This document shows, one piece after another, positions 1,190-41,115 of a stretch of DNA of 64,000 nucleotides. The position numbers were made by a program, and so were the translations under genes. Source of the DNA: Mobula hypostoma (taxonomy: Eukaryota); NCBI RefSeq assembly GCF_963921235.1, contig NC_086108.1, forward strand, positions 46,378,001 through 46,442,000, read 5' to 3'. The notes below the pieces were generated by a model. That model had not been told where the DNA came from. It searched no databases and saw nothing but the letters and a program-made list of their open reading frames with translations. The number at the start of each line of letters is the position of its first letter. Within the stretch, counting starts at the first letter, position 1.

Positions 1190-3075
1190 GCTTTTCATAT
1201 CTTTATGCAAAGGATGACCAGAAATGAAGGGATTCAGAAGATGTATTCCAATAGCACCGGATTTGCATATTCAACCATTCGACAAGCTGGTACCATTATG
1301 AATGGGTGTATCTCAGGGCATCATCTTTGACTTCATTCAAACGAGTCTTCCATCTTTCTGAATGATAATGGTGGCAAAATACCAAACTTGCCCTCTATAG
1401 TCTTGTTTTACATGCTTGGCTTCATGGAATTAAGCCTCAAGAGATGGGTACTGGGCAATCTGAAACTGCCACACCTCCAAATCAAGGAGACACAGGCAAC
1501 TCTATGGTTGATCCCAAACTAATTTCAAATTACTGGATTTGCTGCCAAATTTGATTTGGTCCAGCCTTGCATTGCGTGCTATGTAGATTTATATAGCTAC
1601 AATGTTTATGATATGTAATGTTTACAATACTACTGATTTCGATGACAGCATGTTAAATACAAAACCACCGAAGAACAAAGTAATGTACTACTCGTGATAA
1701 TGGATTTGTTTAATGTTTTACAATCAATAGTCCCATAAAGATGGAATTTCATTTGCCTTTTCATTCAGGTTCCCCTATGCCACACATTATTTTCTGCTGC
1801 TGTGAGGAGGCAGCATGTATCTAGGTATTTTCCTAAGCCTTGATATCTAACCTAGAATAATGTCTTCACTTACCTTTTTCTCACACCAAACTCTTACCTA
1901 CTATTTTTTTCCTCGTATGCTCCCAGCCTTTTAAGACTGTGAGCAAATTAATGGCTGACTATTCCAATGGCCCAATCATTGATATATAAAGCCATTTCAT
2001 CAGCTATTAAGTTATGATATCTACCTTCAACATTGTCTCCAAAATAATCAATTATCTTCCTATTAGTTGTGGCCTACCCCAGTTGATGGAAAGATTTACT
2101 AGTAATGATAATTGGTAAAGTACAGAACAAGCTGAATGGAAAGTTATTTAACATTCCTTAACATCAACAGAATTAACAAAGAATAATTCTGTTGGGTCCT
2201 CTCAGGAATCTGTGAAACAGCAGAAGACGATAGAATGTATTGCAATATTCCACAGTTTGTATTCACCCATCTCAGTACAAATTGGATGTATGAATGTATG
2301 CACAATTAATATTTATTTAATTCCTCCCTATGGGATGTGTTTAACCATTACCTGGAGTGTTCTCATCAGATTTATCCAATTGACTAATCAGGTTGACCGC
2401 ACAAATCGGTGAATCACGTTGTGATCTTTTGTTATCCATATAGCTCCATACCTGTGTTACGTTATGATGTTGTCTTGTTAACTTGTAGCAATTTCTCATT
2501 TCCAAATTCATTGCTCAAATGCACTTTGATTGATGAGGTGGTAGGATTTGTCTCAATCCTTCCTTCTAATCTAATGGAAGTATAAAAATTAGGCACAAGT
2601 AATTTAATGTGAAGAAACACTACATATGATCACCTTTTGCTTTATCGTTATTCCTATTGAATTACTTGAATGAAAACAAAATTCATATCATCTTTTTTAG
2701 CTTAATTTCCCACACAGCTTCATAACTTGACTACGGAATTAATAAACAAGCTAGTCTGGGAATCTGATACAGAACAAAAAAATCATCTTAAGTTAACATA
2801 ATATTTATGGTCTATTGTCCCTTGAATGGACTCCATTTGCAGCAGAGTTATCCATCACTACAATAAAAATAACATAAACTAACATAATTTAAATATTGTT
2901 TGAGTTTAGTTATGTAAAAATGAAAAGCTACTGCCCTTTAAAGTTTGTTTAAAAGTGTTTGTACAGACTTAAATCACTATATAAAATGATTGAATAATTT
3001 ATTTGTATATCTAATACTGATCATTTCATATGTTTCCTGATATACACAGAAGTTGTAAATATATTTCCAATAAAA
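1190..3075 (+). other. Probable 3'UTR exon of the upstream selectin
   Basis: Acceptor ttattgcag|1190. AT-rich and free of recognisable repeats, with several ATTTA motifs and AATAAA at about 2741, 2862 and 3068. The end position is uncertain. Confidence 0.4.
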
Positions 3076-26115: not shown

Positions 26116-26118
26116 ATG
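26116..26118 (+). CDS. Selectin start-codon exon end (ATG|gtaagg)
   Basis: ATG immediately followed by a consensus donor. Phase 0 matches the next exon, as in SELP/SELL. Confidence 0.55.
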
Positions 26119-26958: not shown

Positions 26959-27049
26959 GTATCTTGCACTGAAACTTACGATTGCCAATGGGGGCATCAA
27001 CAGCCTCAGAGAACAACCCATCATTTCTGGATTCTAGTTTTCATCTACG
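26959..27049 (+). CDS. Selectin signal-peptide exon (VSCTETYDCQWGHQQPQRTTHHFWILVFIY)
   Basis: Acceptor tttcccttctacag and donor G|gtacag. 91 nt, phase 0-1, with a hydrophobic end that joins in frame to [13 protein letters not shown]. Confidence 0.7.
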
Positions 27050-29055: not shown

Positions 29056-29436
29056 AGCTGGTAATTTGGGAAGGAGTTGACACTTGGACATATAACTACT
29101 CAGATACAAACATGACATGGGCAGATGCCAGGGAATACTGCCAAAAATCCTTCACTGACCTGGTTGCAATTCAGAACCAAGAAGAAATTAATCATCTAAA
29201 TCAGGTATTACCAAGAAATCCAACTTACTACTGGATTGGAATAAGGAAGATTGCTGGTGTTTGGACCTGGGTTGGAACAAATATATCACTGGACAAGAAA
29301 GCAGAAAACTGGGCGGAAGGAGAACCAACTTCTGGGGGAGAGGATTGTGTGAAAATCTATATAAAGTGACAAAAAGAAGCAGGAAAATGGAACAATCATA
29401 GCTGCAACAAAATGAAAGTGGCAATTTGCTATTTAG
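29056..29436 (+). CDS. Selectin C-type lectin exon (contains in-frame TGA 29367-29369)
   Basis: [89 protein letters not shown]. 381 nt, phase 1-1. Confidence 0.95.
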
Positions 29437-29580
29437 GTAAGATAAAAATGTTCTCAGAGTTTGGTGAATGTGATGAGTGCTTCCTAAGAATTTAACATCT
29501 GTACAACTCCAAGCACAACTGACATACTCGATGAAAAGTCCTGGAACAGTAAAGTTGTCTTTTCTGATTTCTAAAAATAC

Positions 29581-30406
29581 ATTGAACCCATGAACACCAC
29601 CTCACTCTTAATGATTCAGGAACAGCTTCTTCCCCTCTGCCACCCGATTTCTGTATGGACATTGAACCCATGAACACTACCTCACTCTTAATGATTCAAG
29701 AACAGCTTCTTCCCCTCTGCCACCCGATTTCTGTATGGACATTGAACCCATGAACACTACCTCACTCTTAATGATTCAGGAACAGCTTCTTCCCCTCTGC
29801 CACCCGATTTCTGAATGGACATTGAACCCATGAACACTACCTCACTCTTAATGATTCAGGAACAGCTTCTTCCCCTCTGCCACCCGATTTCTGAATGGAC
29901 ATTGAACCCATGAACACTACCTCACTCTTAATGATTCAGGAACAGCTTCTTCCCCTCTGCCACCCGATTTCTGTATGGACATTGAACCCATGAACACTAC
30001 CTCACTCTTAATGATTCAGGAACAGCTTCTTCCCCTCTGCCACCCGATTTCTGTATGGACATTGAACCCATGAACACTACCTCACTCTTAATGATTCAGG
30101 AACAGCTTCTTCCCCTCTGCCACCCGATTTCTGAATGGACATTGAACCCATGAACACTACCTCACTCTTAATGATTCAGGAACAGCTTCTTTCCCTCTGC
30201 CACCCGATTTCTGAATGGACATTGAACCCATGAACACTACCTCACTCTTAATGATTCAGGAACAGCTTCTTCCCCTCTGCCACCCGATTTCTGAATGGAC
30301 ATTGAACCCATGAACACTACCTCACTCTTAATGATTCAGGAACAGCTTCTTCCCCTCTGCCACCCGATTTCTGAATGGACATTGAACCCATGAACACTAC
30401 CTCACT
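29581..30406 (+). repeat. 80-bp tandem minisatellite (10 full units plus a partial unit) derived from a Rex1 3' end
   Basis: Unit attgaacccatgaacactacctcactcttaatgattcaggaacagcttcttcccctctgccacccgatttctgaatggac starts at 29581, 29661 ... 30381. Homologous single-copy sequence at about 24285-24355. Confidence 0.95.
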
Positions 30407-32938: not shown

Positions 32939-33370
32939 TATGACAAGGATGTTTGGTTCTGGCCCGAGTGCAGAAGGAGAAACGCCGAAGCAGATAAACA
33001 GTTCACCGACTTTTAATAAGAAATGCGCAGAATTAAAAGAATAAAAACAATAAACGCGAGGCCAACAGGGCCTTTAACTAAAACTCTCGGATCGAAAGCT
33101 AACATCGACAATGCGGCTCGGAACCAGTAACTTAATACGAAATAAATACCGCTCCTTTACAGCGTGAATCTAAATGGTAGTCTTCTTTCCCGGAGCAAGG
33201 ACTAAGGTGAGCAGGAAGCGTTGACATTGCTGTGGTTTTGGTCAAGTTTCGACAAGACAGAAACGAAAGGAGGGGAGTTAAATAAAACCACAATGAAACA
33301 CTAATCGACCTCGTTCCGAACACTCCTGCAAGGGCGCACAGACCCCGCGGCAGAGTCCATGGTTGTGACA
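32939..33370. mobile_element. Probable solo LTR (Gypsy-like), CpG-rich
   Basis: tatgacaa...ttgtgaca termini and CpG-rich composition against an AT-rich background. No clear TSD. Confidence 0.4.
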
Positions 33371-33741
33371 AAATGTGTACAAATTTACACTATATCAGCG
33401 GCCGAAGACTTGTCGGTTTTTTTTTCCAGAATTAACTTCTGGATTGATGGGCCGGAGTATTCGCCGGCAGGCTGGTGGCTGGGTGGAGGAGCGATGATGC
33501 TGTCCGGCGGGCAGAGCGGGGCAGCTCACCTCACACTGTAGGGCCGGGGCGTTGTGCACCCGGGCAGGCTGTGGGAGGCTGAGATCGCTGGCGCCGCGGC
33601 TGTCCTCGAAAGGTAGAACACTTAAGGTGCTGTGCTAGAGGACCAGCGTGTCTGGCTGATGTAAACGACGATAATGTGAGGAAAATCATGTAAATATTTT
33701 AGTGAGCGATCATTCTGAGACTGTGTTGCTTTTTTCGATAG

Positions 33742-33849
33742 CCTCGTGCAAGCCTAACTCCTGTAATAATCGAGGAGAATGTGTGGAAACTGTCGGATAT
33801 TACAAATGCCGTTGCGACGAAGGGTTCTACGGTTTGCGGTGTGAATTGG
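33742..33849 (+). CDS. Selectin EGF exon (ASCKPNSCNNRGECVETVGYYKCRCDEGFYGLRCEL)
   Basis: 108 nt, phase 1-1, six Cys. Matches the selectin EGF consensus. Confidence 0.93.
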
Positions 33850-34578
33850 GTGAGTTGTTGAACAGGTGAACATTGTTGAATCTCACTCTAGCTATTGCGT
33901 TCAACATTCTGAGGCCTCGAGGGAATCAGACAGTGTGACCCGGGTTCCCTCGAGTTGGAGCTCCAGGTGGACGGCCAAGAGGGAGTGAAGACTGAAGACT
34001 GATGTAAAAGAAATAATGGGATACAGAGGAGGATTATTTACCTGATAGAGTTCAGATATCGGGATGATTTCCGTCAGCAACTCAGCCGAACAACAATGAG
34101 AAGACTAAATTAGATGCTCGTGGATCGGGGAGGTCAGGGTGAGGAGTAAAAACATCGACTGCTAACATTTATGGAAAACAGACCTCTGGAAGCTGATTAG
34201 AAGAGGGTCGGCCAAATCAAATTTGGAATGTGGCAGTGAGGTCATTGGCCAGGTTTTATCAGGAGGGTGGTACCACTTAGACAGTCTTTGTGTTGGAATT
34301 GGGAGGTAATCCAATGATGAAACAGCGCGTTCAGGTTATGAATGGTCAGTTTGGTTCTTTGACAGTGAGCAAAACTCTCTAAAACATCTCAAGGCTTATG
34401 GCTCCAGTCATCATTGTAGATCTTGAAATCTATGCTTGTCTGGATAAAAATTGTTGATCTGTCCTTGAATAAGATATTAATCTGAATACTTAGATGTTAG
34501 ATCACAGCAATTTTTTTATCATTGACTTTTATTATTTCATTCCATAACTGATATATTATTGCCATATTTCCTGGCCAG

Positions 34579-34764
34579 TTAAGCAATGTGACACTTTGAG
34601 TGCTCCTGTCCAAGCAAAAATGCTGTGCAACCACCCTCTTGGAAACTTCAGCTTCAACTCCACCTGTGACTTCCACTGCATTCCAGGGTTCACACTGCAA
34701 GGGTCACAGAGTCTCCAGTGCACGGCGGCAGGACAGTGGACAGCAGAGACACCCAGCTGTGAAG
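34579..34764 (+). CDS. Selectin sushi/SCR exon 1
   Basis: 186 nt. VKQCDTL..MLCNHPLGNFSFNSTCDFHCIPGFTLQGSQSLQCTAAGQWTAETPSCE has the six-Cys selectin SCR pattern. Confidence 0.93.
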
Positions 34765-34874
34765 GTAAAAGATCAAGAATGATCCACCATCAGCAACTTA
34801 GACAACCGAGTAAAGAAGAAAGATGCACATTACTCATTCCGTTTGGGTCAGCTTCCTTCATGCTTGTGTTTCAG

Positions 34875-35060
34875 CTGTAAAGTGTGGAAAACTGGAGATT
34901 CCCGAGAAAGGATACATGAACTGCTCTCACCCCCTCAGCGATTTCAGTTACAAGTCAGTGTGTACGTTAAACTGTGATAAAGGATTTCATCTTGGTGGAT
35001 CAGATAGCATTCAGTGTGGAACATCTGGACAATGGAATGGGCGGAAACCCACCTGTGAAG
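34875..35060 (+). CDS. Selectin sushi/SCR exon 2
   Basis: 186 nt. AVKCGKLEIPEKGYMNCSHPLSDFSYKSVCTLNCDKGFHLGGSDSIQCGTSGQWNGRKPTCE. Confidence 0.93.
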
Positions 35061-35165
35061 GTACAATTAGATGAAGTAGAAGTAAATTTTTTTAAATGTG
35101 TATAGAAAATTGTACAATTTTATTAGCTTGACTAAACGTGTGCTCAGTTGAAATGTATTCTTCAG

Positions 35166-35351
35166 CTATGCAGTATACAGATCTGGAGTTTCGTGGACAA
35201 GGAATCAGGAATTGCACACATTCAACTGGAGAATTCAATGATAGCTTAACATGTAACCTTTGTAGCAGTGCAAGATCTGAGCTTTGTGAACCAGGCACAC
35301 AGGAGACCGGAGCTGTGGGAAATTGGACAACACAGTCCCCCACCACTAAAC
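35166..35351 (+). pseudogene. Degenerate third sushi exon (open frame, Cys pattern lost)
   Basis: 186 nt between ttcag and a weak gtacac donor. Translates AMQYTDLEFRGQGIRNCTHSTGEFNDSLTCNLCSSARSELCEPGTQETGAVGNWTTQSPTTK. Confidence 0.7.
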
Positions 35352-35449
35352 GTACACAAAATTAGGATAACATCTAGAGTTTGTGAAGGCAGAGGTTATC
35401 CATTATGTTAATTTAGCCAGCTGTATTGTATACATCTTTAACTATACAA

Positions 35450-37140: not shown

Positions 37141-37260
37141 TTCATATCTTTAACAAAATGTGGGAACCACAAAAGGCCACAGTAGCAACTGTGGGAACAG
37201 CATTCACACTGCTGCTTCTGTCATTTGTAGTCTGGGGTATTATACGTCGTTATAGAAAAG
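37141..37260 (+). CDS. Selectin transmembrane exon (HIFNKMWEPQKATVATVGTAFTLLLLSFVVWGIIRRYRK)
   Basis: Acceptor tttgttttgacag and donor G|gtaaga. 120 nt, phase 1-1. Hydrophobic helix followed by a basic stop-transfer segment. Confidence 0.85.
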
Positions 37261-38053: not shown

Positions 38054-38081
38054 CAAAACAAGAGAAGAACCCACTTTCAAG
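38054..38081 (+). CDS. Selectin cytoplasmic exon ((A)KQEKNPLS(R))
   Basis: Acceptor ttttcttttacag and donor AG|gtaat. 28 nt, like the paralogous exon 377-404. Confidence 0.7.
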
Positions 38082-41081: not shown

Positions 41082-41115
41082 AAATGAAGACAATTTGGAA
41101 AGAACTACAGTTTAA
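41082..41115 (+). CDS. Selectin last coding exon (NEDNLERTTV*)
   Basis: Acceptor tttcacttttatgtacag in phase 2. TAA at 41113-41115, followed by an AT-rich UTR with AATAAA at about 41459. Confidence 0.55.

Follow-up and report, generated by a model that had tools for sequence, protein, structure and literature searches.

What becomes of a selectin gene when a stop codon falls inside its ligand-binding domain? The question is raised by a C-type lectin exon of the devil ray Mobula hypostoma, within the 64,000-nucleotide window analysed here (contig NC_086108.1, positions 46,378,001 to 46,442,000 of the forward strand; coordinates below are those of the window). The first-pass annotation had described a selectin paralogue whose lectin domain was specifically disabled while the rest stayed intact, and had offered either a young pseudogene or null allele, or a non-adhesive, lectin-less receptor. 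The evidence below makes it probable that this gene, here called copy B, is a young pseudogene, derived from a redundant selectin copy and still transcribed in part.

Structure of copy B and its premature stop

Copy B has the layout of a selectin: an N-terminal C-type lectin domain, one EGF domain, sushi repeats, a transmembrane (TM) segment and a short tail, with one exon each. The model comprises nine exons with canonical splice sites; its likely start ATG is at 26116 and its terminal stop at 41113-41115 (378 codons, one internal stop). The features are as follows, with organism B denoting a relative that is about 1.7% diverged (75/4476 bases).

26116..26118, plus strand: end of exon 1 and likely start (ATG/GTAAGG), placed by donor and frame inference without spliced RNA
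26959..27049, plus strand: exon 2, the signal-peptide exon, open (exon model)
29056..29436, plus strand: C-type lectin exon of an EPT/WNN-class selectin (copy B) with internal stop (translation, L-selectin alignment)
29157..29366, plus strand: central tract of the lectin exon, 95% identical to the inverted paralogue (likely old gene conversion)
29352..29354, plus strand: E92K codon, Glu in organism B (contig comparison)
29367..29369, plus strand: premature TGA at R97, common to organism B (contig comparison)
33742..33849, plus strand: EGF exon, open (exon model)
34579..34764, plus strand: sushi 1 exon, open (exon model)
34875..35060, plus strand: sushi 2 exon, open, spliced to the TM exon in both species (RNA contigs)
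35166..35350, plus strand: sushi 3 exon, decayed and skipped (first and last Cys lost, no GT donor)
37141..37260, plus strand: TM exon, open, with an in-frame ATG at 37158 (exon model)
38054..38081, plus strand: tail exon 1 (exon model)
41082..41115, plus strand: tail exon 2, ending in RNEDNLERTTV and the natural stop, resembling the shark tail (exon model)

The 381-nt lectin exon is bounded by AG and GT, has phase 1-1 and four Cys codons, and also encodes the C-terminal part of the signal peptide; joined without it, copy B is an open frame of 251 residues. The description of the rest of the gene as intact stands for the EGF, sushi 1-2, TM and tail exons and fails for sushi 3, which both RNA contigs crossing 35166-35350 skip. 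Besides the TGA, no further lesion was seen in the nine modelled exons of this genome. All four lectin Cys and the splice sites are present as described, with two of the four Cys behind the stop. Cryptic in-frame donors upstream of the stop (29257, 29347) look weak by eye. Directly behind the lectin exon lies a minisatellite (29579-30406; 80-bp unit, 10.4 copies, 98% matches), and 440 bp before the EGF exon lies a multi-copy repeat of about 365 bp (32941-33305; ~80% identity, 2150 candidates). Two copies of this repeat stand 4.6 kb apart on another contig, suggesting an LTR; it is followed by a GC-rich stretch, and the region is a putative internal promoter.

A genome search placed four selectin lectin exons on the contig, among six matches: an EPN/WND gene directly upstream, copy B, an inverted copy A about 98 kb away and, some 180 kb downstream, another EPN/WND exon. 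Copy B sits behind an EPN-type selectin as in sharks, and the Mustelus model P0008 is a fusion of the EPN-type selectin and copy B in the order of this genome. The lectin exon of copy A is open (EPTPGGED..WNNDPC) and encodes a sequence identical to the M. hypostoma database protein P0034. The fourth lectin exon, L004 (EPNNGKANED..VEMYINVGENSGKWND), falls near a teleost selectin group without K96/R97, on a long, weakly placed branch.

The in-frame TGA at 29367-29369, 67 nt upstream of the lectin-exon donor, aligns to R97 of human L-selectin, and translation and this alignment bear out the R97 position assigned earlier from E-selectin; copy A has AGA at the equivalent codon. A contig from X1, possibly the source sample, shows 0 differences from the assembly over 29286-29560, with no second allele listed. 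In organism B, represented by the two samples X5 and X10, the only difference in the X5 contig (29337-29560) is at 29352; the X10 contig (29172-29439) differs there and at 29328. Both keep the TGA, and the lectin exon of organism B retains E92 and carries its own T82A. The TGA is thus real and fixed. An assembly error or a private null allele, for which one could cite that the second sample under the same species label (X9) covered the codon with the paralogue alone, is scarcely credible and was rejected, given the clean X1 contig and the TGA in two samples of organism B; the null-allele option lapses with a stop common to two species.

Sequence comparison dates the TGA between the divergence of the stingray lineage and the split from organism B. 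The TGA also preceded E92K, since organism B has the stop but keeps E92. A short-protein search for copy B exons, truncated or intact, in other rays gave 72 hits, the best at 55-70% identity and none from the EPT/WNN clade, so a closer dating of the stop was not reached.

The disulfide pairing of the C-type lectin fold needs the Cys that are lost behind the stop, and a fragment that ends short of the WNN strand, with only two of its four Cys, would not be expected to fold. Nonsense-mediated decay follows a 50-55 nt rule; with the stop 67 nt before an exon junction and six junctions behind it, a fully spliced mRNA would be sent to decay. Copy B lacks the open lectin frame with four Cys of a functional sLeX-binding selectin, and the TGA, being the same in this genome and organism B, is a fixed disabling change of the kind that marks a pseudogene.

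The calcium site of the EPT/WNN selectins

Copy B shares its signal-lectin-EGF-sushi-TM-tail layout with human E-, L- and P-selectin (PDB 1G1T, 3CFW/5VC1 and 1G1Q), and its lectin domain aligns to that of human L-selectin over 116 residues (E 2e-46). Y48, E80, E88, Y94 and N105 are kept; T stands at N82, K at E92, the stop at R97, N at D106 and H at 107, and the loop is two residues shorter. We take E80, N82, N105 and D106 to be the selectin calcium-site residues, the ligands of the EPN/WND motif. Where a selectin that binds sLeX has EPN, WND, E92 and R97, copy B has EPT, WNN, K92 and a stop. The sLeX contacts given in PMC11232095 are E88, E92, R97 and Y48.

The first-pass annotation had read the changed and shortened motifs as damage concentrated on ligand residues, with sugar binding lost before the stop arose. 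A motif census does not sustain this. Among 260 lectin domains, matched by pattern in 232 fetched proteins, 232 are EPN/WND, 19 EPT/WNN, 8 EPD/WNN and 1 EPN/WNG. All 19 EPT/WNN domains come from sharks and rays and have an 8-residue loop; intact, they all keep E88, E92 and Y94 (19/19); 18 have R97, the other K, and 18 have an acid at 107. These proteins are named 'L-/E-/P-selectin-like' in the database and include P0026 (Hypanus), P0034 (Mobula) and P0047 (Scyliorhinus). EPT, the short loop and WNN also occur in the stingray orthologue P0026 and in the intact copy A of this genome. Targeted loss of ligand residues was therefore rejected as an explanation. On these comparisons, three of the four cited changes are ancestral features of the subfamily; E92K, which is later than the stop, and the stop itself are the only ones private to copy B. 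The histidine at 107 is common to copy B and the intact P0026, and D/E107H may mark an earlier relaxation.

Copy B belongs to this class by its EPT, its 8-residue loop ending in ED, its WNN and its place in a quick tree of 91 domains, a hand-picked subset of the fetched proteins with SH-aLRT support and no bootstrap. There a single clade of 21 (SH-aLRT 99) unites the EPT/WNN rows, and copy B stands beside Hypanus P0026 (SH-aLRT 96), to which it is 91% identical. The eight EPD/WNN rows, all percomorph (P0004, P0005, P0007, P0018, P0020, P0021, P0024, P0025), form a separate clade (99) nested in teleost EPN/WND selectins. They are changed at the same two calcium-site positions, with Asp rather than Thr at 82: N82D and D106N, a charge swap, occur in 8/8 domains, and this class has Gln at 88. 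Across the 27 EPT/WNN and EPD/WNN domains, a change at 82 is always accompanied by one at 106.

An altered motif need not mean a dead site. Human CD23 has EPT in a C-type lectin domain whose principal site binds Ca2+ (PMC3724626), so the motif by itself does not imply that calcium binding is lost. CD23 differs in that it is not a selectin, binds IgE without carbohydrate and has the ligand Asp-270 (PMC3724626), where the EPT/WNN class likely has Asn. We tentatively propose, as a reading that may well prove wrong, that sharks and rays have an old selectin class with a re-wired calcium and fucose site (N82T, D106N, a loop shorter by two residues) and E88, E92, Y94 and R97 held. Such a class would bind a ligand other than classical sLeX, either another glycan or a protein, as CD23 does; percomorphs would have re-wired the same positions independently (N82D, D106N), and devil rays would have knocked out one of two copies. 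Three selectins are reported in Fugu, with no motif variant mentioned in the accessible text (PMC514892). In a search of open-access literature listings, no paper dealt with a selectin of EPT/WNN or EPD/WNN type, with selectin loss in rays or with chondrichthyan selectin phylogeny.

Relatives of copy B and change after the stop

Five shark proteins (P0008, P0038, P0040, P0047, P0049, assigned by motif end, sushi or tail type) represent copy B in intact form, with its type of TM segment and tail, and the stingray model P0026 is an intact copy B as well. Database names point to copy A in four myliobatiform genomes and to copy B in one, from word-index searches that are weak for absence. The stingray copy B model has an intron-derived start, one or more read-through introns, no signal exon and an out-of-frame sushi-2 copy. 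Together with 107H and the decayed sushi 3, this odd model suggests that copy B was already weakening in stingray relatives. Organism B also has an apparent second sushi-2-like exon copy (X5, 34535-35040), preceded by a sushi-1 acceptor, and the stingray model likewise reads two sushi-2 copies.

The centre of the lectin exon has a history of its own. Over 29157-29366, copy B and the inverted copy A (L002) differ at 11/210 positions, against about 30-37% in the flanks. Third-position differences number 6/70 in the centre and 18/46 in the flanks (P 1e-4); four-fold sites alone (4/26 centre, 2/9 flanks) give no conversion signal. In the quick tree, shark copies group by species, not by copy. These patterns point to likely gene conversion between the inverted copies, recurrent and, in the lectin centre, old. 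An isoform of Narcine (P0063) lacks the C-terminal part of its lectin domain, about half of it, without loss of frame; the break falls at the site matching 29321, where copy A has an internal GT and copy B has none.

The differences between this genome and organism B are all later than the stop, and the dN/dS check proposed earlier was made against organism B only. In the lectin exon, three differences change an amino acid and none is silent. In the EGF, sushi 1 and sushi 2 exons of copy B, 11 are amino-acid-changing and 4 silent, giving an omega of 0.77 that omits three differences in organism B's second sushi-2-like copy and two unlisted ones. A hand calculation with the three second-copy sites added gives 12 changing, 6 silent and an omega of about 0.56. 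An omega of 0.2 is rejected (P 2e-4), as is 0.3 (P 5e-3); 0.5 is not (P 0.11), so the check finds no clear constraint and is compatible with a value of 0.5. Polarisation by P0026 assigns six changes to this lineage and five to that of organism B, where the Gly of the sushi C..GF motif has become Glu.

Copy A provides a yardstick if the distance to organism B is similar to that between the two named Mobula species: its EGF and sushi domains differ at 10/345 residues between two database Mobula species (7/328 for a shorter isoform), against 11/157 for copy B versus organism B (P 0.05; P 0.02 with the shorter isoform). Copy A differs from stingray sushi domains at 65/310 residues, and stingray divergence does not separate copies A and B. 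No stop, frameshift or splice-site loss was seen in the EGF, sushi 1 and sushi 2 exons of organism B. A rough model puts the chance that all non-lectin exons and splice sites stay open at 0.45 for a branch of 0.9% and at 0.21 for one of 1.8%. The downstream exons, which show no clear constraint, are thus likely to be open by the short time elapsed and not by protection.

Transcripts and the fate of the gene

RNA runs were recognised by their spliced junctions; X10 is without cover on exons 1-2 and X22 without cover on 33660-35420. In X9, copy A contigs reach a depth of 15-19. The 5' half of copy B appears there as unspliced pieces alone (depth 2.6-6.2), which cross the exon 2 donor and the lectin acceptor. 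Contigs of both X9 and X10 cross the EGF acceptor unspliced. In both runs sushi 2 is spliced directly to the TM exon and the decayed sushi 3 is left out; in X9 this junction lies in a contig of depth 33.7. The junction that would skip the lectin exon (27049/33742), sought as suggested earlier, is not among the joins listed for the X9, X10 and X22 contigs, which drop rare variants and could miss it.

One X9 contig, 1339 nt long and at depth 33.7, covers 34042 to 35060 without splicing; a further 144 letters of it map uniquely to 2427-2570. This contig defines two features.

34042..35060, minus strand: region covered by the RNA contig, likely an antisense exon, its 34042 end being the donor CAG/GTAAAT (contig and splice consensus)
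2427..2570, minus strand: likely antisense 3' exon with a CTAAT branch-like motif, pyrimidine tract and TAG acceptor, in the 3' UTR of the upstream EPN-type selectin

The 31.5 kb skipped at the 34042/2570 join begin with CT and end with AC. A genomic deletion as the source of the join was rejected, both ends fitting the minus-strand splice consensus. An antisense RNA is thus likely spliced over the 5' half of copy B and into the 3' UTR of the upstream selectin, and the X9 contig is likely this RNA merged with a sense piece in an unstranded assembly.

The first-pass option of a non-adhesive, lectin-less receptor is the best placed of the alternatives and still improbable. A membrane protein would arise either through lectin-exon skipping (251 residues) or, as a sushi-TM-tail or TM-tail product, from an internal start, and would serve as a non-adhesive or signalling stub. 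The open skip frame, the sushi-2/TM junction spliced in both species and the absence of any lost Cys in the expressed copy fit such a product, as do three in-frame ATG codons (34620, 34916, 37158), of which the one at 37158 has A at -3 and is conserved in organism B and two sharks. However, RNA contigs run unspliced across the EGF acceptor in X9 and X10 and across the exon 2 donor in X9, and the sushi 1-2 intron, which carries an in-frame stop, is retained in the X9 contig. Skipping would also remove the C-terminal part of the signal peptide, and the downstream omega of about 0.8 and the loss of a conserved sushi Gly to Glu in organism B speak against it. Of that option, the open frame and the spliced 3' half stand; a listed skip junction and clear downstream constraint were not found.

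Slightly less probable again is that the protein is dead and the locus is kept as a regulatory RNA, whose antisense strand would pair with the 3' UTR of the canonical selectin next to it and tune the level of that selectin. The strong minus-strand donor and acceptor at the join, the uniqueness of the far piece in the genome and a donor core with no change listed in organism B agree with this. The join, however, comes from one contig in one of three RNA runs on that stretch, unstranded, and antisense RNA is common at old genes. Readthrough of the UGA-C context, yielding a little full-length protein with an altered lectin site, is very unlikely. The base after the TGA is C and frame and splice sites are intact, but the CAA after the stop is inherited, since the orthologue has Gln there, and so was not selected; both lineages also gained further ligand-site changes after the stop.

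The pseudogene reading, the option of the first-pass annotation that the evidence favours, draws on the stop fixed in two species, the lack of clear constraint downstream, the decayed sushi 3 and the intact copy A. In a genome that has an intact copy A with a matching binding-site motif, plus two canonical EPN/WND lectin exons, loss of copy B would cost little. After the stop, both lineages would have drifted, with E92K here and T82A and the sushi Gly-to-Glu change in organism B; the leftover RNA, a spliced sushi-2/TM/tail piece and a spliced antisense RNA, is likely residual transcription. Against this stand the sushi-2/TM junction spliced in both species, the unrejected omega of 0.5 and the lack of a downstream lesion. 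Copy B resembles a transcribed duplicated (unprocessed) pseudogene, with introns kept, one fixed stop, apparently near-neutral change, an intact paralogue nearby and residual sense and antisense RNA. It differs in that the duplicate is old, being shared with sharks, and only the loss is young.

As a gene loss this is minor, one spare copy of a four-gene cluster in a ray lineage. It shows how ancestral subfamily motifs can mimic targeted damage when a fish gene is compared with human residues only. The selectin calcium site is usually taken to be invariably EPN/WND, but in two separate fish lineages positions 82 and 106 co-change. The EPT/WNN and EPD/WNN classes are thus two natural variants for testing how the selectin calcium site sets ligand choice, and they bear on leukocyte rolling in cartilaginous fishes.
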